DNA of 9,780 nt, taken from a virus (Duplodnaviria; Heunggongvirae; Uroviricota; Caudoviricetes). Below are positions 1-9,780 of the stretch, piece after piece (the first letter of the stretch is position 1; every line of letters begins with the position of its first letter). The stretch covers positions 1 through 9,780 of the IMG/VR virus record IMGVR_UViG_2700989535_000004, one strand, 5' to 3'. The notes below the pieces were generated by a model. The model made no database searches and was not told where the DNA came from. It saw only the letters and a list, made by a program, of their open reading frames with translations. Position numbers and translations under genes: made by a program.

Positions 1-564
1 TCAACGACTGCGCTTAGCGTGGCGCTCCCAGTTTTCTTGCTTCGCCTGCGCCGTTTTACGTAGTGCGACGTAACACGCCCCGCTGCCGCCATGATGCGGT
101 AGCGCAGTGCAATATGCCTGAACATCATCAAATTCGGTCAGCCAGCGCGCCACATAGCTGCGGACAATATTGGCATGCGATTTATCATCCCGTCCTTTGC
201 CATGAATAATCAGCACGTTACGCAAACCATCAGCCATGGCTTGTTGAATGAAACTGAACATCATTTTGCGGCACTCTTCCACCGGCTGGCGCAAAAGATT
301 CAGGCTCGCCTGTTGCGGATATTTACCACTGCGCAGCTTATCCAGCACCCCATGTTGCAACCCTTCCCGCCGAAACTCCAGCGGCTGACTTAGTGGGATG
401 ATGTCGAGAAATCCGGTGGTGAGGAAATTATCAAGCTGCAGCGTGTCGATACGCTGCGGCGCACGTTGGTTACGCGTTGGATGCCAGTGGACATCGGTAG
501 CACGTTTCAGCGGCTGGACATCTTCCATGGCGTCAAGAAACAGCGATTTGTCGTCAAGGTTCAT
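1..564 (-). CDS. smrA: Smr-domain protein (SmrA/YdaL-like putative DNA endonuclease); host gene flanking the island
   Basis: Complete 187-aa ORF on the minus strand with stop at 1-3. Smr-type core motif (..NVLIIHGKGRDDKS..). The 187-aa length and the MNLDDKSLFLDAMEDV N-terminus match my recollection of E. coli SmrA rather than SmrB; not verified by search. Confidence 0.7.
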   Translation of the reverse strand: MNLDDKSLFLDAMEDVQPLKRATDVHWHPTRNQRAPQRIDTLQLDNFLTTGFLDIIPLSQPLEFRREGLQHGVLDKLRSGKYPQQASLNLLRQPVEECRKMMFSFIQQAMADGLRNVLIIHGKGRDDKSHANIVRSYVARWLTEFDDVQAYCTALPHHGGSGACYVALRKTAQAKQENWERHAKRSR

Positions 565-782
565 GTTACATCCTCCCGCAATTAAGAGCGCGATATGATA
601 ACCAGACCGGGTCGGTCCAACAACGTATTACCCAAAATTCCAGTAATAAGTTCCAAATATTGCCGATATTTTAAGCAAAATGCTTATGCATGATTATTCA
701 TTCACGATATTTATAATTAAATGCGCATAACTTATTGAATTTAACCAACAAACATCGCTGCAAATAACGTTAAAAATCGCAA

Positions 783-806
783 ATTAACTACACCATTAAC
801 TACACC
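783..806. repeat. Perfect tandem direct repeat, 2 x 12 bp (ATTAACTACACC)
   Basis: Read directly: attaactacacc at 783-794 and again at 795-806, in the AT-rich intergenic region upstream of the Smr gene. Confidence 0.9.
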
Positions 807-1296
807 GTTCGGTGCACTGTATGCAACAATGCGGAACAAATAGACACAAGCGACGGGCTATACCGTTATCATTTTCCGGCTATCCGCCATGAAGCTGGTG
901 GATGATCACGGATAAACCGTTATGGAAGTCCCCATATCGGCATCATGCCCACCAGCGAGATTAGTTATCTGGTTGCTGATGGGAGGCTGACGAACCTCGA
1001 TGCTAGGGTGCGCAAAACTAGTGAGACCTTTTTTCTCTGCAACAGGCCCATAATTCGCGTTTTCTTTGTCTGCCGTAAGGTGGGGGATTTTTGGCGGATC
1101 CAGCAATGGCGCGGATTTTGTGATTTTTTATAGATAGACCTCATCTATCAATCCCGTGCACACCTTCCCAAAAAAAGTTTTCGAACCTGCGGCGATGTGA
1201 ACAAGGGTAGGCGGGCGGTCCCATAAGCAATGAGGTGTAGGGATTTCTATCCCCCTGGGGGTATTAAACACCACCCGATTTAAATACCGTCTTTTT

Positions 1297-1332
1297 TGTC
1301 ACTGTGTGTCACTCTCCGTCACGGTATGTCAC
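1297..1332. repeat. Four (T/C)GTCAC motifs at exact 10-bp phasing; candidate protein-binding array at the left island edge
   Basis: tgtcac at 1297-1302, tgtcac at 1307-1312, cgtcac at 1317-1322, tgtcac at 1327-1332. The array lies immediately downstream of the last island ORF (stop at 1339). Confidence 0.8.
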
Positions 1333-1338
1333 CACAAG

Positions 1339-1620
1339 TTAACGTCGTAACCGTTCCGGCTTCTTCCAGTGGTAAGTAATTTTTTCTTTCTCTTGGTACA
1401 TCTGCACGCGGCGACGGTACGACAACATCTCCAGAACTCTGGTGCGTATGTTGCGCATATCCACGCCGTTAAGCTCGATACCGTCACGGCGCATCACCTC
1501 AGCAACAACACGCACATAATTTTCAGCGGTCACGCTGTCCGGCTGCGTGGCCTGTTCGTCAGCCTGCTGGCTGATTCCGGTAACGCGGCGGATTAATCGC
1601 AGTATTTCGGCTTCTGTCAT
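1339..1620 (-). CDS. Hypothetical protein (93 aa), last gene of the packaging operon
   Basis: ATG at 1618-1620 preceded by TGGGGGCACA (G-rich SD, 4-nt spacer); 73-bp gap after the Nu1-like gene. No recognisable similarity to lambda gpA, gpW or gpFII. Confidence 0.5.
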   Translation of the reverse strand: MTEAEILRLIRRVTGISQQADEQATQPDSVTAENYVRVVAEVMRRDGIELNGVDMRNIRTRVLEMLSYRRRVQMYQEKEKITYHWKKPERLRR

Positions 1621-1693
1621 TGTGCCCCCATCGCTCTGATAGCCTGGTGTCGTCAGGTCCTTCCTGGAATTATGGCCCGTTACGGGGCGGCGG

Positions 1694-2236
1694 TTACTCG
1701 CCTTTGTTCTGTAGCAACTTCTCAGGCGCGCTTCCGGTAGTTTCCATCAGGTAATCAGCCAGTATCTGTGGCAGGTTTTCGTCAAGTCTTGCACATGCGT
1801 TACATGCTTTGGCTATTTCCCTTTTTAGTTCATCCAGCATATACGGCCTTATATCGGGAAAGCGCCTTTGCATTGTGAGCGGGAGGCTGTCCATGATTGA
1901 TGAAATCTGACTCGCTAGTTTTGAAATCGCGTAGATGCAAAACTTTGTATCAATCACCTCGCCGCGTTCGCGCTCGTTTTTAAGTTCCTGCGCTTCCGCC
2001 TGGGCCGTCATTAATCTGATTCTTACGCGTAAAAGTTCATCATCATCAATCTCGCCTTTGTCGTTTGTAAGCTGGTTAATTGCATTGTTAACCCTATTGT
2101 CTATCACGCTAGCAACATCATAAAACGCCTCACGGCCTTTACGCTCAACGGGAGTTACTCCCCACTTGTCGAACGCTGTCGCACTTACGCGGCAGCTTTG
2201 CGCCATAGTTTTTTTGTTCATCAGGTGCGATTTCAT
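1694..2236 (-). CDS. Terminase small subunit, lambda Nu1 family
   Basis: Translation aligns along its length with lambda Nu1 as recalled (e.g. RLMTAQAEAQELKNERERGEVIDTKFCIYAISKLASQISSIMDSLPLTMQRRFP vs lambda RLTRAQADAQELKNARDSAEVVETAFCTFVLSRIAGEIASILDGLPLSVQRRFP). About 180 aa like Nu1. Start taken at ATG 2234-2236 (SD GTGGGGA, 5-nt spacer); ATG 2219-2221 (MNKK.., aligning with lambda MEVNKK) and GTG 2246-2248 are alternatives. Sits 134 bp downstream of cosN. Confidence 0.85.
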   Translation of the reverse strand: MKSHLMNKKTMAQSCRVSATAFDKWGVTPVERKGREAFYDVASVIDNRVNNAINQLTNDKGEIDDDELLRVRIRLMTAQAEAQELKNERERGEVIDTKFCIYAISKLASQISSIMDSLPLTMQRRFPDIRPYMLDELKREIAKACNACARLDENLPQILADYLMETTGSAPEKLLQNKGE

Positions 2237-2261
2237 CAATATCCCCACTTAGTTAAGGTTT

Positions 2262-2420
2262 CAGGTTGGTGTGTTGGTGTTATCTTTCCCTTTTTATTCA
2301 TAGAGATAGAGCGAAAAACAAAACCACCACCACCAACCCGAAAAGGCTCATAAATAGCGAAAATCCGCAAGGTCGCCGCCCCGTAGCCTGCCGGATCGCC
2401 GGAAAGGACCCGCCAGCCAG
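2262..2420 (-). other. Lambda-type cos site: cosQ-like flank (2382-2420), cosN (2370-2381) and a divergent cosB-like region (2262-2369)
   Basis: The minus strand reads CTGGCTGGCGGGTCCTTTCCGGCGATCCGGCAGGCTACG|GGGCGGCGACCT|TGCGGATTTTCGCTATTTATGA. The 12-nt block is the lambda cohesive end, and both flanks match the lambda right-end and left-end sequences as I recall them with only a few substitutions. After TATTTATGA the sequence diverges; the cosB-like region carries GGTTGGTGTGTTGGTG (2265-2280) and its inverted partner CCACCACCACCAACC (2324-2338) around an AT-rich core. Confidence 0.8.
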
Positions 2421-2437
2421 AACGGGCCCTAATTTCA

Positions 2438-2821
2438 TCAACCAATCAGCTTATAGCGACCATCCCGTGCATTGCGACGTACACGCTCAATCTTGAGGCA
2501 TAGCGCCGCATCTGGCTTTTTGGGGACAGGTACGCGGCAATATTCAGAAGCTCGAGGAATATTGTTTATCCAGTCGATCACTTCACTTAAATACCAGGCT
2601 TTACGCCCTTCCGTAACCTGTACGCGTTCGGGGAACTCTCCACGAGCCTCAAGGTTTAGCAATGTGCGACGGCTAAGGGTAGTAAGTTCCATCACCTGAT
2701 TCATATCAACAAGGCGTTCACTTAAACGCATTTTGTCAGCAATAGCCTTTAATTCCTCTACTGCTGGATCCGGATACATCATTTCGGCAATTGGCTTAAG
2801 GTCATTGTAATGATTCTGCAT
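2438..2821 (-). CDS. AlpA/Xis-family (HTH_17-like) DNA-binding protein, 127 aa
   Basis: ATG at 2819-2821 with SD AAGGGGGA (4-nt spacer). Central segment MELTTLSRRTLLNLEARGEFPERVQVTEGRKAWYLSEVIDWI has the AlpA/excisionase-type HTH pattern, with about 40 extra residues at the N-terminus and about 40 at the C-terminus. The stop lies directly next to cosQ. Confidence 0.6.
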   Translation of the reverse strand: MQNHYNDLKPIAEMMYPDPAVEELKAIADKMRLSERLVDMNQVMELTTLSRRTLLNLEARGEFPERVQVTEGRKAWYLSEVIDWINNIPRASEYCRVPVPKKPDAALCLKIERVRRNARDGRYKLIG

Positions 2822-2832
2822 TGTATCCCCCT

Positions 2833-3174
2833 TTACACACGAGCCAGCGGCTGAACAGAAATACCTGAGCCAACAAACGCGGCAACCTTTGCCGACAGTT
2901 CTCTTACAGACTCAGGCCAGTTCAGAGCATCAACATTTAAAACACCTGTCTTATAAACCTGTGCCTGTGTTTTTTTCGCTGTGTCGATTTGTACAGCGGA
3001 AACATAAACCGCTTTGCCTGCGCTCGTTCCATCCCATACCACTAGCGCACCAGTTGCATCTTCCTGCATCAGTGGCGTAAACGCAGGTATTACCCCTTTA
3101 TTGGCTGAAAATATCCCCAGCGTAGTAACCAGTGCTTCAGTGCCAGACATGAGTTCAGTGTAATGAGTAGCCAT
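2833..3174 (-). CDS. Head decoration protein, lambda gpD family
   Basis: 113 aa. Shares with lambda gpD as recalled: TPLM, LV(V/A)WDGT, YK(T/S)G, WPE and AF(V/A)G(S/T)(G/A)IS in the same order and spacing. ATG at 3172-3174 with SD AAGGGGGAG; starts 9 nt after the capsid gene stop. Confidence 0.85.
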   Translation of the reverse strand: MATHYTELMSGTEALVTTLGIFSANKGVIPAFTPLMQEDATGALVVWDGTSAGKAVYVSAVQIDTAKKTQAQVYKTGVLNVDALNWPESVRELSAKVAAFVGSGISVQPLARV

Positions 3175-3183
3175 TGCTCCCCC

Positions 3184-4230
3184 TTAGCCAATGCGAACGG
3201 TAACAAAACGATTGATGCGGGCCGGTATTGGCTGTGGTGCAGAGTGCGTTTGTACGTACTCAATAGCCGGATCACCAGGCACAATATAGTTTTTCGGTGC
3301 AAGTTCGGCTTTAGTCAGCCCCATTCGGGTTAGCTCCGGATCCTGAATACCGCCATAGGCGACAATCCCCTGAAGAGCCGTATTGCCAAGCACCATCAAA
3401 TCAGGATCAAGGAAATGTTTTTCAGTTCCGTCCTCGTCGGTATAACGTCCGCTGTAAACAACAATCGCAACATCGCCCATATACCCTTTAAAACTCACCG
3501 AATCACCAAGGTCTTTAAGGGCCGTTTCCAGTTCGGAATTAGAACCACGGCGGGTATCCAGAGCCTCTTTTATCGCTCTGAATGAACGGTATTTCTTCCA
3601 TACATTACCGCCCATAATGATGATATTAGTGACGCCCTCACTAAATTCTGCGTAGCTCTCAATATCATCATTTGGATCAAAAGTTTCTTTATCCTTACCT
3701 GACCACTCAGCACCGCCAGACTGCGTGATAATATTTTGTGGTTTTATATTCCAGTCCAGTTCATAACGTTCAATACCATCGCCCTCAATGATATTTTTCC
3801 CCGTTGTGATTGCCTGAACAGCAAGCCATTCAATACGTGCACGTATAGCTTTAGCCTGATTTACAATCGCCTGTTTAACTTTAATATTACGCGCCCCAAA
3901 AGCATTGTATTGTTCAGGTGATACACCAGCAGGGCGCACAGCTAACTTATTTGGATCAATGCTGCTTTTCGGTTTCATATAGCCAGGGCGAATTGTTTTT
4001 GATTCGTATCCCTCATCTCGTGAAACTTTACTGCCCACCATAGGAGAGCAAAACGCCGCGATCGGGATATTTGGATCGTCGATCGTATCAAGAATAATGT
4101 CTCTCGATTCAAACATTACCGAGCGAGTGAAAAACAAACTGGTAAACAACGCATTTAATTTTTTTTGCACATCTTCAGCATTAGCCATCTGCACAAGCTG
4201 TGTAGGCGAATATAAATCAACCATACTCAT
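3184..4230 (-). CDS. Major capsid protein, lambda gpE family
   Basis: Strong colinear similarity to lambda gpE as recalled (ITQSGGAEWSGKDKETFDPNDDIESYA.., DTRRGSNSELETALKDLG, GDVAIVVYSG, MVLGNT, with an MSM start like gpE). 348 aa from ATG 4228-4230 (SD AAAGAGG directly upstream); ATG 4222-4224 has better SD spacing. The six-frame ORF runs on to 4311 but that extension has no gpE counterpart. Confidence 0.9.
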   Translation of the reverse strand: MSMVDLYSPTQLVQMANAEDVQKKLNALFTSLFFTRSVMFESRDIILDTIDDPNIPIAAFCSPMVGSKVSRDEGYESKTIRPGYMKPKSSIDPNKLAVRPAGVSPEQYNAFGARNIKVKQAIVNQAKAIRARIEWLAVQAITTGKNIIEGDGIERYELDWNIKPQNIITQSGGAEWSGKDKETFDPNDDIESYAEFSEGVTNIIIMGGNVWKKYRSFRAIKEALDTRRGSNSELETALKDLGDSVSFKGYMGDVAIVVYSGRYTDEDGTEKHFLDPDLMVLGNTALQGIVAYGGIQDPELTRMGLTKAELAPKNYIVPGDPAIEYVQTHSAPQPIPARINRFVTVRIG

Positions 4231-4393
4231 CCTCTTTACATTCATTACAAATAATTGTGAATATATTCTATTACCGATGTCTGCTATGCGAATACATGCA
4301 ACCAAGTGCAATGTTGTATAAAATATGCCGTGACAACTTCAGTGCTGATAATTCGTGTTAATGTATTTACTTCCTTTGGTCGGGATTTATGTA

Positions 4394-4435
4394 GCATGCC
4401 GGAAAATCTATTTTTTTCCGGCATCTTTTTGTTTG
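4394..4435 (+). terminator. Stem-loop (11-bp stem) with a T-tract on the plus strand; terminator-like element between the SSB and capsid genes
   Basis: ATGCCGGAAAA (4396-4406) pairs with TTTTCCGGCAT (4414-4424), followed by CTTTTTGTTTG. The U-tract geometry is on the plus strand; on the coding minus strand the hairpin is preceded by an A-tract instead. Lies 16 bp beyond the SSB stop. Confidence 0.4.
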
Positions 4436-4441
4436 CAGAAT

Positions 4442-4864
4442 TTAAAACGGTATATTATCGCCGTACGGATCATCATTCCCCGACTGTTGTTTTGCCCTGT
4501 TCAGTGCGTCAGTGGCCTGCCCCTGCTGACCTTTTTTGCCGCCCGGTCGCGCCGTTCGCGCACTGATTACGCTGTCTGCGATAACCTGCCAGCCCCGCCG
4601 CGTTTCGCCGTTCTGGCCTGTCCACTGGCTTACCTGCATGTTACCCGCCACGCTCAGGAGTTCACCCTTGCGGTGCTTTGCCAGTGCTTCGGCCTGTCTG
4701 CCAAACGCCAGGACGGATAACCACATCGTCGCCGTTCCGTCATCTGCCTGGCTGCACGGAAGTGGGACCGCCATACTCGCCATCGTCATTTGTGTACCCT
4801 TGCTGGTGGTCTTTAACTGCGGGTCAGCCACCAGCCGCCCGTAAGCCGCTATCTGTGCTGTCAT
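4442..4864 (-). CDS. ssb: Single-stranded DNA-binding protein (SSB)
   Basis: 140 aa with an OB-fold-like N-terminal region (IAAYGRLVADPQ.., WLSVLAFGRQAEALAKHRKGELLSVAGNMQVSQWTGQNGETRRGWQVIADSV), a Gly/Gln-rich linker and an acidic tail ending DNIPF (compare SSB DDDIPF). Its ATG (4862-4864) overlaps the upstream stop as ATGA. Confidence 0.85.
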   Translation of the reverse strand: MTAQIAAYGRLVADPQLKTTSKGTQMTMASMAVPLPCSQADDGTATMWLSVLAFGRQAEALAKHRKGELLSVAGNMQVSQWTGQNGETRRGWQVIADSVISARTARPGGKKGQQGQATDALNRAKQQSGNDDPYGDNIPF

Positions 4865-5112
4865 GCTGTCTGCTCTCCGGTTTTAACGTTGATGGTTGTC
4901 ACCTGTTCCGCTTCGGCAATCTCCCGTTCTGTCAGTGTGGCAAAATTTGCCGCCGCCGTGGTCATGAATGCGCTTATCAGTTCGGGATGCGCTTTCGCGT
5001 ATCCTTCTCCGGCGTGGCGGTCTATCGTTCTGATTGCCACCTTTAAGGCGTGCTCTGTCATGTCTAATGCGCGATATTTTGGTGCTGTTTTATCTCTGCT
5101 TTTTCTGGTCAT
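4861..5112 (-). CDS. Hypothetical protein (83 aa), translationally coupled to ssb
   Basis: ATG at 5110-5112 directly abutting the iteron region; G-rich sequence upstream; stop overlaps the ssb start. No family recognised. Confidence 0.5.
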   Translation of the reverse strand: MTRKSRDKTAPKYRALDMTEHALKVAIRTIDRHAGEGYAKAHPELISAFMTTAAANFATLTEREIAEAEQVTTINVKTGEQTA

Positions 5113-5113
5113 T

Positions 5114-5316
5114 CCCCACTACCCCCCACTTTTTCGCCTCACTTTTTAAGCTCCCCACATGATTTCCAACCTTGTTTTTTTGTGATTCTAATATGTTGTT
5201 TTTCAATGTGTTTTTTATTCCTCACTTTTGAGCCTATATACAGATTGAAAAGTGAGGGGCGCGGTTGCTTTTTGTTCAGTTCCTGCTATCCCCTCACTTT
5301 TGCGCCTCACTTTTTA
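5114..5316. repeat. Iteron array flanking an AT-rich core: putative replication origin
   Basis: CC(C/T)CACTTTT(T) copies at 5124-5134, 5137-5147, 5219-5229, 5292-5301 and 5304-5315; partial copies at 5114-5120 and 5153-5160; one inverted copy (AAAAGTGAGGGG, 5247-5258). A T-rich core lies at 5161-5217. The array starts at the stop codon of the replicase gene. Confidence 0.65.
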
Positions 5317-6729
5317 CAGTGGGCGCACATCATCACCGTCAATAGCGATAACGCCGTCTCTTTCCAGCTTGTACAGCCAGCGCCGGAAGTTTTTCATCTC
5401 ATACCCCAGCTTTTTCATATCATCGCGCAACAACGGGATAGTGCATTTATCGCCGCGCTGTGTGCGTGACCGGATACAGCCCCATAGTGCGGCGTGATTC
5501 TCCGTCTTGTTTCCGGCCTCCTCGATGCGCTCCAGTTCAACGGGTGGGCGCGGCTTATCCACAACCACCAGCGACGTGATTAACTCCTTGTCAGCGTCGG
5601 TAAAAAGCTCCACCACACGTAAATCATATGCAGCCTCTTTCAGTTCCTCCGCGTCCTTCATTTTGGTGCAGGAGATAACCAGGGCCTCACTGTCCGCGCC
5701 TTCGCGGCGGATCCGGTACTCAGCGTCCAGAGATGCACGAAATGCACTGGAACCACGCGCCCCTTTTGTTTCATCCTTGCCGGAATGGTGAACCACCAGC
5801 ACCGTGGCCCCTGTGCGTCGTTTCAGTTCGTCACATCCACGGATAAACGCCCCCATATCCCGCGCGTCATTTTCATCATTACCGCCAAAGCAACGCGCCA
5901 GCGTATCCAGAATAATCATGCGTACCGGTTTACCCGTTTCCCGTTCAACCTGGCGGGATGCGATAACCATTTCATCAACATCAAACTGGGCTGCAGGAAA
6001 AATCGGGCGGGTTACCAGGTACAGATTTTTCACCCGTTCATCATTAACGATTTCCCATGCCTTGATACGGCGGGGGACACCAATGCCACCTTCACCGACA
6101 ACATACATCACCGAACCATGCGCCACCCTGCGACCTCCCCAGTGGCGACCCGTGGCAACATGACACGCCCAGGAACACGCGAGGAACGATTTATAGGAAC
6201 CGCTCGCGCCGTATGTGCTGCACAATGAATTAGCCGGAATCACGCCCTTAACGACATAATCAAGCTGTGTGTCGTACCCTGCAGATCCAATGCTCATTGG
6301 TAGCGTGGTTTTTCGCTGACTGTATTGCTCGTCAGTAAGTATTTCCCCGCGCTCTGCCTGTTCGCGGATCCGTTGCAGGTAGTCGTGCCAGTTCTCCAGC
6401 TTCTGACTGTGCATTCCCTCAGGGTAATAATTCGCATCCCGTACACCTGCCGCCGCCAGCTTTTGCCCGATGGCATTAATATTTGACGGCTTGATGTGGC
6501 CTGCCTTGTACAGTCGGACACAATAGCGACCATCGTCGATAATTTTCAGGCCTGCCAGTTCGTCAAGCTGGCTGTCTCCCAGCCATACAGGCGGAACATT
6601 GTCGCCAGCAAGTCGCCCGTCCTGCTCCTGCCATTGTTTCGCGTGCGCCCAGGCATCACTACCCGCAAAAATAATGACTTCGGTCATTTTGTCGTAAGGC
6701 TGTTTTTTTAAGTTCGGTGCGCTTTTCAT
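5314..6729 (-). CDS. Replication initiator, primase/helicase type, with RepA-like AAA_25 ATPase core
   Basis: 471 aa. Walker A-like GASGSYKSFLA (Tyr where Gly is usual), Walker B-like RMIILDT and a VLVVHHSGKDE motif typical of RepA/AAA_25 helicases. The N-terminal 170 aa may be a degenerate Toprim (EVIIFAGSDAW..LKIIDDG) and the C-terminal 100 aa a DNA-binding domain. ATG at 6727-6729 (SD AGGGG, 6-nt spacer) overlaps the upstream stop as ATGA. Confidence 0.8.
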   Translation of the reverse strand: MKSAPNLKKQPYDKMTEVIIFAGSDAWAHAKQWQEQDGRLAGDNVPPVWLGDSQLDELAGLKIIDDGRYCVRLYKAGHIKPSNINAIGQKLAAAGVRDANYYPEGMHSQKLENWHDYLQRIREQAERGEILTDEQYSQRKTTLPMSIGSAGYDTQLDYVVKGVIPANSLCSTYGASGSYKSFLACSWACHVATGRHWGGRRVAHGSVMYVVGEGGIGVPRRIKAWEIVNDERVKNLYLVTRPIFPAAQFDVDEMVIASRQVERETGKPVRMIILDTLARCFGGNDENDARDMGAFIRGCDELKRRTGATVLVVHHSGKDETKGARGSSAFRASLDAEYRIRREGADSEALVISCTKMKDAEELKEAAYDLRVVELFTDADKELITSLVVVDKPRPPVELERIEEAGNKTENHAALWGCIRSRTQRGDKCTIPLLRDDMKKLGYEMKNFRRWLYKLERDGVIAIDGDDVRPL

Positions 6730-7025
6730 TTCTTGCCCCTGAATCCGTTAATCATGGTTTTCAGCTTCTGGATGTTTGCCCGTGCCCTGGCGTTGCTGGT
6801 GGGCACGTTATGCGGCGCGGTCTGTACCAGAGAAAAATCACACCGGAACTGATAAACAGGCATCACGCAATCATATTCGTAACCTTCACGGCGGTAGATT
6901 ACGCGCCGTTCTTCCACGCCCTTAATCATTACCGTGCCGCCGTACTGGTCGCGGTAAATATCACCGCGCGTAAATTTAGGGTGAGTGTTGCCACTGGCAG
7001 TTAAGCCAGAATATTTAAGTTTCAT
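6726..7025 (-). CDS. Hypothetical protein (99 aa)
   Basis: ATG at 7023-7025 with SD GGAGA upstream; stop overlaps the replicase start. Tight operon context; no family recognised. Confidence 0.5.
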   Translation of the reverse strand: MKLKYSGLTASGNTHPKFTRGDIYRDQYGGTVMIKGVEERRVIYRREGYEYDCVMPVYQFRCDFSLVQTAPHNVPTSNARARANIQKLKTMINGFRGKK

Positions 7026-7030
7026 TATTT

Positions 7031-7264
7031 TTATTCTCCGGTGTGCTGTTCTTTATATCTGTCGTGCAATAGATCTATTTCTTGCAGTTCCATTATTACA
7101 GGCTCAAGAAGCGTTATTAATGCCGTGGCAATTCTTGATTTTTGTTTGTCGCATTCATTGTCGCCAAGTGTTTCAAGCCATATGCGCAATATTTCCAGCA
7201 TGTTTTCACTGTGAGAAAGTGCAAGAAATGCGCGGTCTATTGTTTCGTGGTAAATATCACGCAT
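7031..7264 (-). CDS. Hypothetical protein (77 aa)
   Basis: ATG at 7262-7264 with SD GAGGA (about 8-nt spacer); 5-nt gap to the next gene. No family recognised. Confidence 0.45.
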   Translation of the reverse strand: MRDIYHETIDRAFLALSHSENMLEILRIWLETLGDNECDKQKSRIATALITLLEPVIMELQEIDLLHDRYKEQHTGE

Positions 7265-7490
7265 GGCTTACATCCTCAGGAAATTTTCTTCTGTAACGCG
7301 CCTCTGCCACATATTCCGCATAATCGGCGGCGATATTCAGTACATCAAGCCCCGTTGATTTATATTCTCTCGTGGAAAGTAAGAAAAAAGCCGCTCTAAT
7401 AAGCTCTGGCATTGACGAAAGCGCATCAGCCGCATCATCAGGAACGCCGGAAAATTCCTGTTTCAGGGAATTAAAACGATCATCACGCAT
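7257..7490 (-). CDS. Hypothetical protein (77 aa); possibly the C-terminal half of a frameshifted gene
   Basis: ATG at 7488-7490 lies 2 nt downstream of a G9 tract on the coding strand, which could serve as a G-rich SD. The frame is closed 6 codons upstream of the ATG. See finding on the homopolymer. Confidence 0.4.
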   Translation of the reverse strand: MRDDRFNSLKQEFSGVPDDAADALSSMPELIRAAFFLLSTREYKSTGLDVLNIAADYAEYVAEARYRRKFPEDVSHA

Positions 7491-7723
7491 AACCCCCCCC
7501 CATTTTCACAATCAGCAATCAGGATGGCTTTGGCCTCATTCAGCGCCATATCCGCACTAAGTTGCATAACCGCCAGCGAATGAGGAACGAAAGCCCCGGC
7601 ATATTCTGTTTCACTGGTAGCGTGCTTATGCGCCCTGTCCGCGATAACAGAAATATCAATCAGCGCATCAATCAGTGTTTTGATTGCTTCGGCGGCTGCG
7701 TCCGGACGGGTGTTATTGCACAT
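7463..7723 (-). CDS. Hypothetical protein (86 aa); possibly the N-terminal half of a frameshifted gene
   Basis: ATG at 7721-7723 with SD AGGGGGT (5-nt spacer). The reading frame passes through the G9 tract (encoding GGG) and stops 28 nt later, overlapping the next ORF. Confidence 0.4.
   Translation of the reverse strand: MCNNTRPDAAAEAIKTLIDALIDISVIADRAHKHATSETEYAGAFVPHSLAVMQLSADMALNEAKAILIADCENGGGLCVMIVLIP
7493..7501 (-). repeat. Homopolymeric tract: C9 on the plus strand, G9 on the coding strand
   Basis: Read directly (aaCCCCCCCCCatttt). Sits exactly at the junction of two overlapping out-of-frame ORFs. Confidence 0.95.
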
Positions 7724-7919
7724 GGTGCACCCCCTGACGAATACGGGCGGCGAATACCATCACGCAGCCAGCCGGTGATTGCTGACGGGCTTCCTGTTCG
7801 CTGGTGGCCTCAATGGTAATCACGCGCGGTTGTGCCGTACTCAGGGCGATAAAACGCCAGATGTATTTATTCAGGTTGTGCGAGTCCCGCCCTTGCGGGT
7901 GTATGGTATGATTTCTCAT
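7713..7919 (-). CDS. Hypothetical protein (68 aa), first gene of the minus-strand operon
   Basis: ATG at 7917-7919 with SD GAGG (5-nt spacer). The six-frame ORF extends to a TTG at 8009, but that extension would cover the leader hairpin and has no RBS. Confidence 0.4.
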   Translation of the reverse strand: MRNHTIHPQGRDSHNLNKYIWRFIALSTAQPRVITIEATSEQEARQQSPAGCVMVFAARIRQGVHHVQ

Positions 7920-8017
7920 AGCAGCCTCGATAATCTTGCTATCGTTGGTGGTTAGACGCCCCGTATGTGTTTCCGGCACTGCGGGGCGTTGCTCTTTGTA
8001 TTTCAACAATTCTTTTG

Positions 8018-8096
8018 GTGTGTTTCATGTTATGAGCGCATGAAACACACGTCAAGGCTTTTTGTATTTCTTTTTTTGTGTATACTGAAACACACC
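8018..8096. promoter_or_regulatory. Divergent promoter/operator region: perfect 12-bp inverted repeat overlapping a minus-strand sigma70-like promoter, plus a third half-site at the plus-strand promoter
   Basis: GTGTGTTTCATG (8018-8029), 9-bp spacer, CATGAAACACAC (8039-8050). Minus-strand promoter: -35 TTGACG (revcomp of 8050-8055), 17-bp spacer, -10 TAACAT (revcomp of 8027-8032). Third half-site TGAAACACAC at 8086-8095 just downstream of a plus-strand -10-like TATACT (8081-8086). A fourth GTGTTTC lies at 7967-7973 inside a leader hairpin (ACGCCCCG 7956-7963 / CGGGGCGT 7982-7989). Confidence 0.5.
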
Positions 8097-8116
8097 GATG
8101 ATTAGGAGTTTCAGAA

Positions 8117-8422
8117 ATGGCAACGGCTAACAAAAACGCAAAATCACAACTGACAACTGTCAGAGTCCCACTAGATGTTATGCAAGGGATGGAATCCGTT
8201 AAGCTGGACGGCGAAAGCAATGCCGGATTTATCGTAACCGCCATGCGCGGAGAAATAGCCCGCCGCCAAGCAGAAGGCAGCGGAGAAAATCCCCTTGTGT
8301 CGTCACTGGATGCCCTGGCTAAGGTCGAACAAATCGGCATCAAAGCAGCGGAAGAAATCGGGCAGCTTGTCACCGTTGCACGCGAAGAACTCCAGCGTCG
8401 CAAGACCAAAGAACCAGAGTAA
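8117..8422 (+). CDS. Putative ribbon-helix-helix (RHH) DNA-binding protein, 101 aa; candidate island repressor
   Basis: Strong SD (TAGGAG, 8-nt spacer). N-terminal segment QLTTVRVPLDVMQGMESVKLDGESNAGFIVTAMRGEIARR fits a beta-strand/helix/helix RHH pattern. Operator-like repeats lie just upstream and an intrinsic terminator downstream on the same strand. Composition is A/E/K-rich, unlike the Ser/Arg/Cys-rich opposite-strand reading. Confidence 0.6.
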   Translation: MATANKNAKSQLTTVRVPLDVMQGMESVKLDGESNAGFIVTAMRGEIARRQAEGSGENPLVSSLDALAKVEQIGIKAAEEIGQLVTVAREELQRRKTKEPE

Positions 8423-8479
8423 TCACCATCAGCGCCGTGGTGTAAGGTATTACGGCGCATTGCTATGCAGGACAACACA

Positions 8480-8653
8480 ATGACCGATAAAGAATTGACC
8501 AAAACATTATCACCGGCACGGAAAAGACGGCGCAGAAAGATAGAGCATGAATCAGAAAGATTCGCGCCATGTGCTTTTGCTCTTGAGAAATTCCTTAAAG
8601 AGCACAGGAAAAAGCTCTCGTTGCAAACCTTGGAACGAACCAAATCTGACTGA
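8480..8653 (+). CDS. Small basic protein (57 aa), co-transcribed with the RHH gene
   Basis: ATG at 8480 with AGGA 7 nt upstream; the ORF-track start at 8465 has no SD. Contains an RKRRRRK block. Followed 80 bp later by an intrinsic terminator. Confidence 0.4.
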   Translation: MTDKELTKTLSPARKRRRRKIEHESERFAPCAFALEKFLKEHRKKLSLQTLERTKSD

Positions 8654-8732
8654 TCACATTGCCCACCAGCCGCAAATGTGGCATTGTTGGTGATGCTCAT
8701 GCGTTGGGGATAACGTGTAGCTTGTGTCGAGG

Positions 8733-8761
8733 GGCCACCGTAGCGGGTGGCCTTTGTTTTG
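8733..8761 (+). terminator. Rho-independent terminator of the plus-strand cassette
   Basis: GGCCACC (8733-8739), loop gtagcg, GGTGGCC (8746-8752), then TTTGTTTTG. The U-tract is on the plus strand only. Confidence 0.6.
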
Positions 8762-8763
8762 CC

Positions 8764-9129
8764 TGTTATCCGGCAATTGTGGCGCTTCGCCACACGGTTG
8801 ATATAATCCCACTGCTCAGATTCATTTTTTGCGCAGTAGGTTAATTGTTCACAAAGGCGCTCCGGCAACGGGGCGCTTTTTGTTTTTATTAGTTTGTAGA
8901 AACCTGACTCAGAGATAATGCTCATATTCTGATTGCCGTCAGGGGTGTAAGTTAAATTTACTCCCTTTTTATCATCAAACATCTGCAACGCTCTGGCGTT
9001 AACAATATTGGTTTCACTCCCTCCAGTAAGGCCGGAAATAACCGGAATAATTTCGGCAAAATTTTGCAGATTCTGTTTTTCAGGACGAACGAAGCCCCGC
9101 CCTTGTTCGGGAGAATATCCAGTATTCAT
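8764..9129 (-). CDS. Hypothetical protein with a possible Bro-N-like motif; 3' boundary undefined, possibly a truncated remnant
   Basis: ATG at 9127-9129 with only a weak SD. The segment PDGNQNMSIISESGFYKLIKTKSAP resembles the Bro-N core (GGKQ.MT.INESGLYSLI..S.KP), but the N-terminal Bro-N signature is not evident. The ORF formally continues without a stop to 7939, across the plus-strand terminator, cassette and promoter region; I list only the 5' part, ended at an arbitrary in-frame position. Confidence 0.3.
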
Positions 9130-9181
9130 GGTTAGATCTCTGTATTAGTGGATGGGTGGCGGCTGTGTGCCGCCAGCCTGA

Positions 9182-9370
9182 TTAGTGAACTGCCTCGCAG
9201 CTTTCCTTCCATGCCAGAACTTCGGATAAAGACCAGCCAACGGAACGACCGCCGAGCTTACGCCGTGATGGGAATTGTCCGGTTTTTTCCAGGCGGTACC
9301 GACATGAACGGCTCAGGCCTGTAAGTTGCTGACATTCTTTTTCACGTATAAAGCGATCTGTGCTTAACAC
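9182..9370 (-). CDS. alpA: AlpA-family transcriptional regulator / excision-associated HTH protein (62 aa)
   Basis: DRFIREKECQQLTGLSRSCRYRLEKTGQFPSRRKLGGRSVGWSLSEVLAWKE matches the AlpA/Vis-type HTH. Start taken at GTG 9368-9370, preceded by SD AAGGGGGA (3-nt spacer); the 118-aa ORF-track start at 9538 has no comparable RBS. Confidence 0.75.
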   Translation of the reverse strand: MLSTDRFIREKECQQLTGLSRSCRYRLEKTGQFPSRRKLGGRSVGWSLSEVLAWKESCEAVH

Positions 9371-9403
9371 AATTCCCCCTTTGATATTTCTTAAAGAGTT
9401 ATT

Positions 9404-9450
9404 TGGTGTCCTATTGTGTTGTGGTGCGTCGGATTGTGTCAGGGTGTTTA
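9404..9450. repeat. Five (T/G)GTGT(C/T)-type motifs at 10-bp phasing upstream of alpA
   Basis: TGGTGTC 9404-9410, TTGTGTT 9414-9420, GGTGCGTC 9423-9430, TTGTGTC 9434-9440, GGTGTTT 9444-9450. Confidence 0.7.
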
Positions 9451-9664
9451 TGGAATGGCAAACACTGGCGGCGGTCATTTTACAGAAGTGTGGTAATGAG
9501 AATAAAAACTCTTTTAATTCATTGTGGTGCAAAGGCATAAAATTCTGTTTTTACGCCTTTTTTACATGTTTTTAAGAGTGATTCGCCAATGTACAAAAAG
9601 CCAGTAAAACGACTGAAAATCAACTTTTTAGGGTGTCAGTCAGATGTTAATCAAGTTTGTTCCA

Positions 9665-9715
9665 GATTGTTCGCCGTTGTTCGTCGTGGTGTCTCGTTGT
9701 TTCACGTTGTGTCAG
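9665..9715. repeat. Five tandem 10-bp units ending in (C)GTTGT, with TTGTGTCAG
   Basis: Motifs (G/C)(A/G)T(T/G)GT at 9665, 9675, 9685, 9695 and 9705. The 9-mer TTGTGTCAG occurs at 9707-9715 and at 9434-9442; GGTGTCAG at 9632-9639. Confidence 0.7.
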
Positions 9716-9780
9716 TTCTAAAAAATCGCAAAAAAAATTATATTTCTCTGGCTATTGGCAGTGTGGTTACGTTTTTGTGA

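Follow-up and report, generated by a model that had tools for sequence, protein, structure and literature searches.

Identity and Extent of the Island

The window, by which we mean the whole 9,780-nt stretch of DNA analysed here, very probably represents nearly all of a 10.4-kb classical Gram-negative phage-inducible chromosomal island (PICI) of the EcCICFT073 family, inserted by a tyrosine integrase at an att site in the smrA-abgR intergenic region. The first-pass annotation had interpreted this DNA as a satellite dependent on lambdoid helpers rather than one arm of a prophage, and had proposed that the sequence be extended rightward. Sequence beyond the window end was taken from E. coli KSC1031, whose record matches the window (RefSeq annotation; L001 coordinates). 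An integrase gene lies just past the window end and is followed directly by McaS and abgR, and the phage structural and lysis genes of a full prophage are absent. In the RefSeq annotation of that record, the stretch from smrA to abgR is free of genes for tail, lysis, portal and large terminase (terL) proteins; therefore, the prophage-arm explanation falls and the satellite reading stands. A complete account of the 16 CDS that lie between the att sites likewise includes no portal, TerL, tail or lysis protein.

The island was originally placed from position 1290 onward. However, it begins at the att core at 702-719 and ends near 11,159 (window numbering), giving roughly 10.4 kb, within the size range of PICIs (about 8-12 kb). 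In agreement with the organization of PICIs, int and alpA are located at one end, the one next to abgR, and point in the same direction (minus strand), and lysis genes, tail genes and a complete morphogenesis module are lacking. The components on which the first reading was built, namely alpA, a RepA-type replicase, an iteron origin, ssb, terS, cos and a capsid pair, were all found and are supported by profiles. Megablast of the island against the phage collection matched the 79-nt cos only, and the single hit of the tRNA and Rfam searches was McaS, outside the island.

Integration Site and Integrase

The Smr gene noted beside the insertion is smrA (1-564, minus strand; RefSeq annotation of the matching record), a chromosomal flank gene outside the island. 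Comparison with strains lacking the insertion, as had been suggested, revealed an empty site in most E. coli genomes and allowed the crossover core to be defined. Based on alignment of the empty site with both junctions and a pattern search, the core at the smrA-side junction is TCACGATATTTATAATTA (starting with TCACGATATT; 702-719), and the partner core, TCACGATATTAATAATGT, lies outside the window at L001 23141-23158. This core is identical to the published core ACATTATTAATATCGTGA of the PICI EcCIEC2733.1 (lysR-smrA). PICIs typically occupy specific att sites that have a direct-repeat core and are not shared with prophages, and both the empty site and the published core back the PICI reading.

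The 3' end of the tyrosine integrase gene occupies 9738-9780 on the minus strand (RefSeq annotation; domain match). The full gene spans L001 21737-22966, equivalent to 9738-10967 in window numbering, so that its last 43 nt fall in the window. A 26-nt repeat, AATTAACTACACCATTAACTACACCG, was detected by repeat search inside the island at 782-807, and its second copy adjoins int at L001 22988-23013; the same sequence is also present at the end of EcCICFT073. The repeat was considered as the att core and ruled out, since the empty-site alignment puts both copies within the island. The integrase carries an Arm-DNA-bind_3 domain, and the repeats are probably arm-type integrase binding sites.

Comparison with the Prototype EcCICFT073

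EcCICFT073 serves as the prototype of E. coli PICIs (Fillol-Salom 2018, PMC6092414; 2019, PMC6739421), and experiments on it have shown what AlpA, cos and the origin do. Gene order in the island is the same, starting with int and ending with the terminal 93-aa ORF: int, alpA, a divergent YlcI/YnfO gene, an icd-like gene, a DUF4222 gene, the replicase gene, ssb, the major capsid protein (MCP) gene, the decoration protein gene, two small genes and the 93-aa ORF. The identities between the two elements are 87% for the integrase, 95% for AlpA, 61% for the N-terminal domain of the replicase, 55% for the MCP, 54% for the decoration protein and 86% for the terminal ORF. The two elements also share an origin with iterons on the 3' side of the replicase gene, a probable arm-type repeat at the island end and, immediately before the packaging gene, a lambda-type cosQ/cosN whose cosB is not of lambda type.

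It follows that, while the PICI diagnosis stands, the departures from the canonical E. coli PICI layout claimed in the first-pass annotation do not. The divergent cassette downstream of alpA had been regarded as one such departure; however, EcCICFT073 has the same YlcI/YnfO cassette there. The capsid pair had been regarded as another, but EcCICFT073 likewise carries c1499 (capsid) and c1500 (decoration) (PMC6092414). The actual differences are elsewhere. EcCICFT073 is inserted at ycfD-phoQ rather than smrA-abgR; its replicase has a primase catalytic domain, whereas that of the island has a RepA/AAA_25 domain; its c1501 and RppA are replaced in the island by an AlpA-like HTH protein and a full-length Nu1-family TerS; its perC is absent from the island; and its two lambda-type cos correspond to one lambda-type cosN plus an HK97-type element, the latter in place of cos2. 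The island is thus a mosaic that is new in its combination of modules, although its family, att site and modules were already known. In this respect the finding adds little, because the PICI family was described in 2018-2019 and the att site is already catalogued.

Regulatory and Replication Genes

The alpA gene (9182-9370, minus strand) was identified by PF05930 (E=1.3e-17); AlpA has been shown to act as the activator of the island cycle in EcCICFT073 (PMC6092414). The divergent cassette (8117-8653, plus strand) comprises a gene for a YlcI/YnfO-family protein (8117-8422; PHROG and family match) and a 62-aa ORF (8465-8653); hairpins that resemble terminators follow it at 8730-8755 and 8853-8880. 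The proposal that this cassette encodes a repressor is unsupported: the YlcI/YnfO-family protein lacks an assigned role, and a master repressor is not known in such islands. The remaining genes of this part, all on the minus strand, encode an Icd-like host cell division inhibitor (7713-7919; NF033153, RefSeq annotation), the products of three small conserved ORFs (7031-7723; phrog_2196, phrog_2512/24341 and phrog_5146) and a DUF4222 protein (6726-7025; profile match), the last of which is encoded at the same position in EcCICFT073.

The replicase gene (5314-6729, minus strand) encodes a RepA/AAA_25 helicase domain (E=2.5e-44), preceded by the N-terminal domain of 130 aa held in common with the EcCICFT073 primase. 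A putative replication origin (5122-5320) contains six AAAAGTGAGG iterons, five direct and one inverted, flanking an AT-rich stretch. The iteron region overlaps the repA stop codon and then runs directly 3' of repA, which matches the position of the PICI ori described in PMC6092414; on sequence grounds, therefore, the island, like other PICIs, appears to supply its own replication module, with an iteron origin after it. An 83-aa ORF (4861-5112; phrog_1231) and ssb (4442-4864; PF00436), which encodes a single-stranded DNA-binding protein, follow on the minus strand.

The Icd-like protein, an AlpA/Vis-like protein, the integrase, a cos site and an own replicase are also features of P4-like satellites. 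However, psu, sid, delta, epsilon and a P4 alpha-type primase were absent in profile searches, the cos is of lambda type rather than P2/P4 type, and PMC6092414 explicitly sets the EcCICFT073 family apart from P4, so that a P4-like satellite is extremely improbable.

Capsid Pair and Packaging Genes

The MCP homologue (3184-4224, minus strand; Phage_cap_E, PF03864) is lambda E-like; the closest phage protein is lambda E itself, with 41.8% identity, as against the 55% with c1499. The adjacent gene (2833-3174, minus strand; HDPD, PF02924) encodes a lambda D-like head decoration protein, whose counterpart for the 54% given above is c1500. Deletion of the capsid/decoration genes of EcCICFT073 gave no interference phenotype.

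The element encodes an MCP, a decoration protein and a TerS and contains an HK97-type cos-like site such as HNH/TerS/TerL packaging modules employ (see below); in this it resembles a cf-PICI or a reduced derivative of one, which would make its own small capsids and steal only tails. However, the genes that define cf-PICIs, namely those for portal, prohead protease, head-tail connectors, HNH and TerL (10.1101/2022.09.08.507074), are all missing between the att sites; moreover, the island measures 10.4 kb, whereas cf-PICIs have about 15 kb. We consider a cf-PICI highly improbable and retain the classical PICI.

The lambda-type cos (cosQ, cosN and I2; 2335-2413, minus strand) was delimited by comparison with the cos of lambda and cos1 of EcCICFT073. 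Its cosN, GGGCGGCGACCT (2370-2381, minus strand), matches that of lambda exactly, and the surrounding cosQ and I2 are nearly identical to those of lambda. A non-lambda cosB follows at about 2250-2340, and its GGTTGGTG/CACCAAC inverted repeats are candidate TerS binding sites. The same pattern, a lambda-like cosQ/cosN/I2 with a divergent cosB, is seen in EcCICFT073 cos1. A second lambda-type cosN like that of EcCICFT073 cos2 was not found in the window at <=2 mismatches.

Downstream of cos lies terS (1694-2248, minus strand; RefSeq start 2236), encoding a full-length Nu1-family small terminase subunit (Phage_Nu1, E=9e-24; phrog_57, E=6e-53, full length). TerS is 47.5% identical to N15 gp1 and 39% identical to lambda Nu1 over Nu1 residues 28-180, the C-terminal region included. 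Known packaging hijack by PICIs combines a helper-type cos with an Rpp or a TerS; here, the lambda-identical cosN/cosQ stands upstream of a Nu1-family terS. No Rpp was found, the term being taken to mean a small homologue of RppA, RppB or RppC of about 144-153 aa: BLASTP of TerS and of the neighbouring HTH protein against EcCICFT073 RppA and c1501 products gave zero alignments. TerS as a mis-annotated Rpp was ruled out by the blank RppA BLASTP, the Nu1 alignment reaching the C-terminus and the full-length phrog_57 match. A phmmer search with TerS gave nothing significant among PDB chains, a set in which the presence of RppC chains is unconfirmed. The HTH protein (127 aa; 2438-2821, minus strand) is a second AlpA-family member (PF05930; phrog_2790; PDB 8c3t, an AlpA-family protein, E=1.6e-10). 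It sits where EcCICFT073 has c1501 but is not similar in sequence to the product of that gene. A Ppi homologue was not detected in the island.

TerS and the MCP share at most 39-48% identity with any homologue in the phage collection, and hence the helper specificity cannot be read off from them. The values also bear on a further explanation, in which the element is a decayed lambdoid prophage remnant that has kept its head and packaging genes rather than a dedicated satellite. Capsid E, decoration D, Nu1 and cos are indeed all of lambda type; yet with <=48% identity to phage homologues, MCP and TerS are not recent phage debris. Furthermore, the 10.4-kb element is compact, with intact ORFs and zero pseudogenes, the order of its own replicon, integrase and alpA follows that of a PICI whose mobilisation has been shown by experiment, its att site is one published for PICIs, and the same architecture occurs at several att sites. 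A remnant is accordingly a very remote prospect.

Proposed Life Cycle

By homology with EcCICFT073, a life cycle can be proposed for the island as a PICI. A lambdoid helper phage would induce alpA, and AlpA would turn on the leftward operon. The island would then excise and replicate from the iteron origin beside the RepA-type replicase, yielding concatemers. Packaging would proceed without Rpp, by means of the Nu1-family TerS, which is complete but diverged in its DNA-binding end. TerS most likely binds the island cosB and recruits the large terminase of a lambda-type helper via its conserved C-terminal part, and the recruited terminase would cut the lambda-identical cosN of the island. The HK97-type cos-like element may also permit packaging by HNH-dependent HK97-like terminases. 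The closest analogy in mechanism is provided by TerS-encoding SaPIs and cos SaPIs (SaPIbov5), in which an own TerS redirects the helper TerL and a helper-type cos is used, respectively; however, SaPIs live in Gram-positive hosts and their proteins are unrelated to those of the island.

Related Islands and Distribution

EcCIEC2733.1 (lysR-smrA; PMC6092414 Table S1) has the same att core, insertion site and size class (10.5 kb). It is reported with RppC (PMC6739421), whereas the island has a Nu1-type TerS at that place, a contrast drawn from the reports and not from direct comparison of the sequences. EcCIDI14 (E. coli clone D i14; PMC6092414 Table S1) shares identical AlpA, YlcI/YnfO and Icd-like accessions with the island and likewise has a RepA-type replicase. 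Its TerS is of equal size and has a neighbouring RefSeq protein accession, a likeness of size and accession rather than of alignment. The end region of EcCIDI14, including the HK97-type element, is 100% identical to window 830-1338. By contrast, it lies inside an IS110-family element and carries an MCP, a decoration protein and a c1501-like cassette of EcCICFT073 type.

The architecture recurs at several att sites, and the modules of the island recur in EcCIDI14 and in hundreds of E. coli genomes. The terS module, at least in part, was found in 969 of 5426 complete E. coli genomes, O157:H7 included, and it is also present in an O157:H7 PICI. TerS-type classical PICIs are thus common yet uncharacterised: experiments cover the Rpp mechanism only, and no functional study on TerS-type E. 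coli PICIs, this island included, was found in the literature.

A Second, HK97-type cos-like Element

A second cos-like element, of HK97/mEp235 type, was detected at 1145-1255 (minus strand) by BLASTN against phages (E down to 1e-12). In the phages, its counterparts always have terS on one side and HNH endonuclease or lysis genes on the other. For HK97, the record ends were taken as the physical cos ends, and the physical end aligns <=3 nt from the shared ACCGCCGCC motif; the mEp235 record ends were dropped for this purpose, as the record begins at the terS ATG. The core of the element is conserved across PICI ends with diverged flanks. However, the cleavage-region motif of the island element has an extra base (ACCGCCCGCC vs ACCGCCGCC), and therefore the element may not be cut. 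Literature searches found no functional study of an HK97-type cos in a PICI.

A tentative reading, which we think somewhat unlikely, is that the island, EcCIDI14 and about 70-150 related islands are dual-cos satellites, with a lambda-type cos served by their own Nu1-type TerS and a lambda-like helper TerL, and a separate HK97-type cos at the end. If so, the HK97-type cos would let the HNH-dependent terminases of HK97-like phages or cf-PICIs package the island without any island factor, and the helper range would be widened over two unrelated packaging systems. The swappable capsid/TerS cassettes at one position, of which two types were seen (E/D with Nu1; a protease-MCP fusion with DUF1441), would then be helper-matching modules. 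As a matter of sequence, a lambda-type cos and an HK97-type cos-like element do occur side by side in a subset of the islands. Should both cos types work, broad helper use would be explained, with a bearing on the prediction of mobilising prophages. The possible dual-cos design is the sole lead here worth following.

A similar HK97-type cos element occurs in about 1100 of 5426 E. coli genomes; genomic contexts aside, these matches are presumed to lie mostly in HK97-like prophages. Four GTCAC motifs in 10-nt phase (1298-1332; repeat search) are located between the element and the conserved 93-aa terminal ORF (1339-1620, minus strand; phrog_1561), the counterpart of the last EcCICFT073 ORF.

Integration site and limits of the island

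The chromosome of Escherichia coli KSC1031 (NZ_CP019560.1) matches the window end to end, with one substitution at 5123, inside an iteron, and a 1-nt indel near 7493, which gives the 7463-7723 ORF a longer C-terminus than in the RefSeq gene model. At least 80% of the window is present in 20 of 5426 complete E. coli genomes. Because the window starts at the smrA stop codon in the annotated record, the flanking "Smr gene" is smrA, not smrB. On the right, the matching KSC1031 locus (L001) continues with the gene of a 409-aa tyrosine integrase (L001 21737-22966, or 9738-10967 in window numbering carried past the window end), directly followed by the sRNA gene McaS and then abgR. The first-pass annotation had read the stretch as a phage-inducible chromosomal island (PICI) and had named a full set of phage structural and lysis genes on the right flank as the outcome that would speak against this. 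Since the smrA-abgR interval of the annotated matching record is without a tail, lysis, portal or large terminase gene, that outcome is absent, and integrase, McaS and abgR are found instead.

Comparison with the empty site of strain 120899, the kind of comparison that the first-pass annotation had called for, located the att core at both junctions, with the crossover in TCACGATATT(A/T)ATAAT (window 702-719 and L001 23141-23158). This gives an island of about 10.4 kb that starts about 590 bp to the left of position 1290, where its start had been placed. Table S1 of Fillol-Salom et al. 2018 (PMC6092414) gives the reverse complement of this core, ACATTATTAATATCGTGA, as the core of EcCIEC2733.1 (CXXR01000010.1, 90531-101020), a 10.5-kb PICI at "lysR-smrA". 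The recognition of a PICI is borne out: without a full phage gene set, the element belongs, as a mosaic, to a PICI family that is already known and catalogued, and the att site that it occupies has been published.

A 26-nt direct repeat, AATTAACTACACCATTAACTACACCG, lies near both island ends (window 782-807 and L001 22988-23013). It was rejected as the att site because the empty site of strain 120899 puts both copies inside the island. Given this position and the arm-binding domain of the integrase, the repeats are probably arm-type integrase binding sites. In the 2018 catalogue (PMC6092414) this very sequence is entered as "att core" for EcCIDI14; as the identical sequence here lies inside the island, that core may have been mis-assigned.

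Gene content and replication module

Profile matches show that every component listed in the first-pass annotation is real: AlpA (PF05930), a RepA-like replicase (AAA_25), SSB (PF00436), TerS (Phage_Nu1), a capsid protein (Phage_cap_E) and a decoration protein (HDPD). PHROG and NCBIfam further identified Icd-like and YlcI/YnfO proteins and several conserved small ORFs without an assigned role. Directly 3' of repA, six AAAAGTGAGG iterons lie around an AT-rich stretch (5122-5320), and PICI origins have been described with the same arrangement, iterons directly 3' of the replicase gene (PMC6092414).

Relationship to known PICIs

The gene order is the same as that of EcCICFT073, the prototype E. 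coli PICI at roxA-phoQ in CFT073 (locus L005): int, alpA, divergent YlcI/YnfO, icd-like, small ORFs, DUF4222, replicase, small ORF, ssb, major capsid protein (MCP), decoration protein, two small genes and a 93-aa ORF. Identity between the two islands is 87% for the integrase, 95% for AlpA, 55% for the MCP, 54% for the decoration protein and 86% for the terminal ORF. Two features had been regarded as departures from the canonical PICI, the capsid-protein pair and the cassette downstream of alpA; neither is one, as EcCICFT073 carries the same pair, capsid (c1499) and decoration (c1500) genes (PMC6092414), and the same divergent YlcI/YnfO cassette. The labelling of this cassette as a repressor is also unsupported, because in the EcCICFT073 study AlpA proved to be an activator and no master repressor was found (PMC6092414). 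Interference with lambda persisted after deletion of c1499/c1500, and the DNA that was packaged was of phage size (PMC6092414).

The catalytic domain of the replicase is of the RepA/AAA_25 type here, whereas that of EcCICFT073 is a primase. The replicase (window 5314-6729) and the primase (L005 27242-28996) have a common 130-aa N-terminal domain (61% identity) joined to unrelated catalytic domains, an indication that domains have been shuffled among PICI replicases. EcCIDI14, from the 2018 catalogue, has a RepA replicase as here; its AlpA, YlcI/YnfO and Icd-like proteins are identical to those of the island, its end region is 100% identical, and its TerS, equal in size to the one here, carries a neighbouring RefSeq accession. 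The O157:H7 PICI at roxA-phoQ has a TerS of the same type. None of the modules in which the island differs from EcCICFT073 is unique to it.

In sibling islands of E. coli PI7 (L018, 3839-6780) and EC-107 (L019), another cassette, a ClpP-like protease/MCP fusion with a DUF1441 protein, replaces the MCP, decoration protein, HTH protein and Nu1-family TerS; one such island occupies the same smrA att site and another the yejO site. In this exchange, capsid and packaging genes appear to be replaced jointly, as a single cassette.

Lambda-type cos and TerS

On the minus strand, positions 2413-2335 read CGGGTCCTTTCCGGCGATCCGGCAGGCTACG, GGGCGGCGACCT and TGCGGATTTTCGCTATTTATGA in succession, near-identical to lambda cosQ, cosN and I2, with cosN exact. 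Past I2 the sequence diverges from lambda into a different cosB (about 2250-2340) with GGTTGGTG/CACCAAC inverted repeats. The island cosB contains GGTTGGTGGTGGTGG (within window 2310-2345); in the cosB of EcCICFT073 cos1 (L005 32600-32625), CACCACCACCAC, which resembles its reverse complement, is about equally far from cosN but in the opposite orientation.

In place of c1501 and rppA (c1503) of EcCICFT073, the island carries a second AlpA-family HTH protein (2438-2821) and a complete Nu1-family TerS, which shows no similarity to RppA of EcCICFT073. This TerS is 47.5% identical to N15 gp1. Against lambda Nu1, its alignment spans residues 28-180 of Nu1 with 39% identity and takes in the C-terminal segment, which in lambda binds gpA; the least conserved part of the TerS is the N-terminal DNA-binding end. 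Of 5426 genomes, 264 carry at least 80% of the terS/cos/HTH module and 969 carry part of it.

An HK97-type cos-like element

Besides the lambda-type cos upstream of terS, the island has at its end a second cos-like element (window 1145-1255, minus strand), whose homologue in HK97-like (HNH-dependent) lambdoid phages is the cos region. Its matches in phage DNA reach an E-value of 1e-12, and in all phages examined (mEp235, PhiR49_2, vB_EcoS-640R1 and vB_EcoS-569R6) the match lies just upstream of terS and downstream of HNH endonuclease or lysis genes, which is where these phages have their cos region. We joined the two ends of the HK97 record, taken as the physical cos ends, and aligned the element with the junction; the ends fell at most 3 nt from a ACCGCCGCC motif common to HK97 and the island element, at which position the island reads ACCGCCCGCC, with one extra C. 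The element core is kept in PICI ends with diverged flanks and quite different packaging cassettes. About 1100 E. coli genomes contain a match to about 75 nt of it, 81-86% identical; we infer that these matches are prophage cos sites.

The element is common to EcCIDI14 and other PICI ends and is absent from EcCICFT073 and the O157 PICI. EcCICFT073 and the O157:H7 PICI have two lambda-type cosN, whereas the present island and EcCIDI14 have one lambda-type cosN and the HK97-type element, a possible dual-cos design. Our literature search found no publication on an HK97-type cos in a classical PICI. Little in the island is new; the leads are this possible design and the TerS-type packaging module, which is uncharacterised.

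Between the 93-aa ORF and the element, four GTCAC motifs (window 1298-1332) follow one another at intervals of exactly 10 nt; in related islands the motif is present five or six times.

Proposed island cycle

Homology with EcCICFT073, which has been studied experimentally, leads us to propose that a helper phage induces alpA and that the island then excises, replicates from the iteron origin and is packaged by way of its lambda-type cos. Instead of an Rpp-TerS heterocomplex, its own TerS most likely binds cosB of the island and brings in the lambda-type TerL of the helper; the HK97-type element may open a second route to packaging for which no island factor is needed.

The 530-nt stretch from 8653 to alpA holds no annotated gene and has two strong terminator-like hairpins (8730-8755 and 8853-8880). 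A 396-aa mechanical ORF (window 7939-9129, minus strand), absent from the RefSeq annotation, overlaps the plus-strand YlcI/YnfO cassette and is probably spurious.
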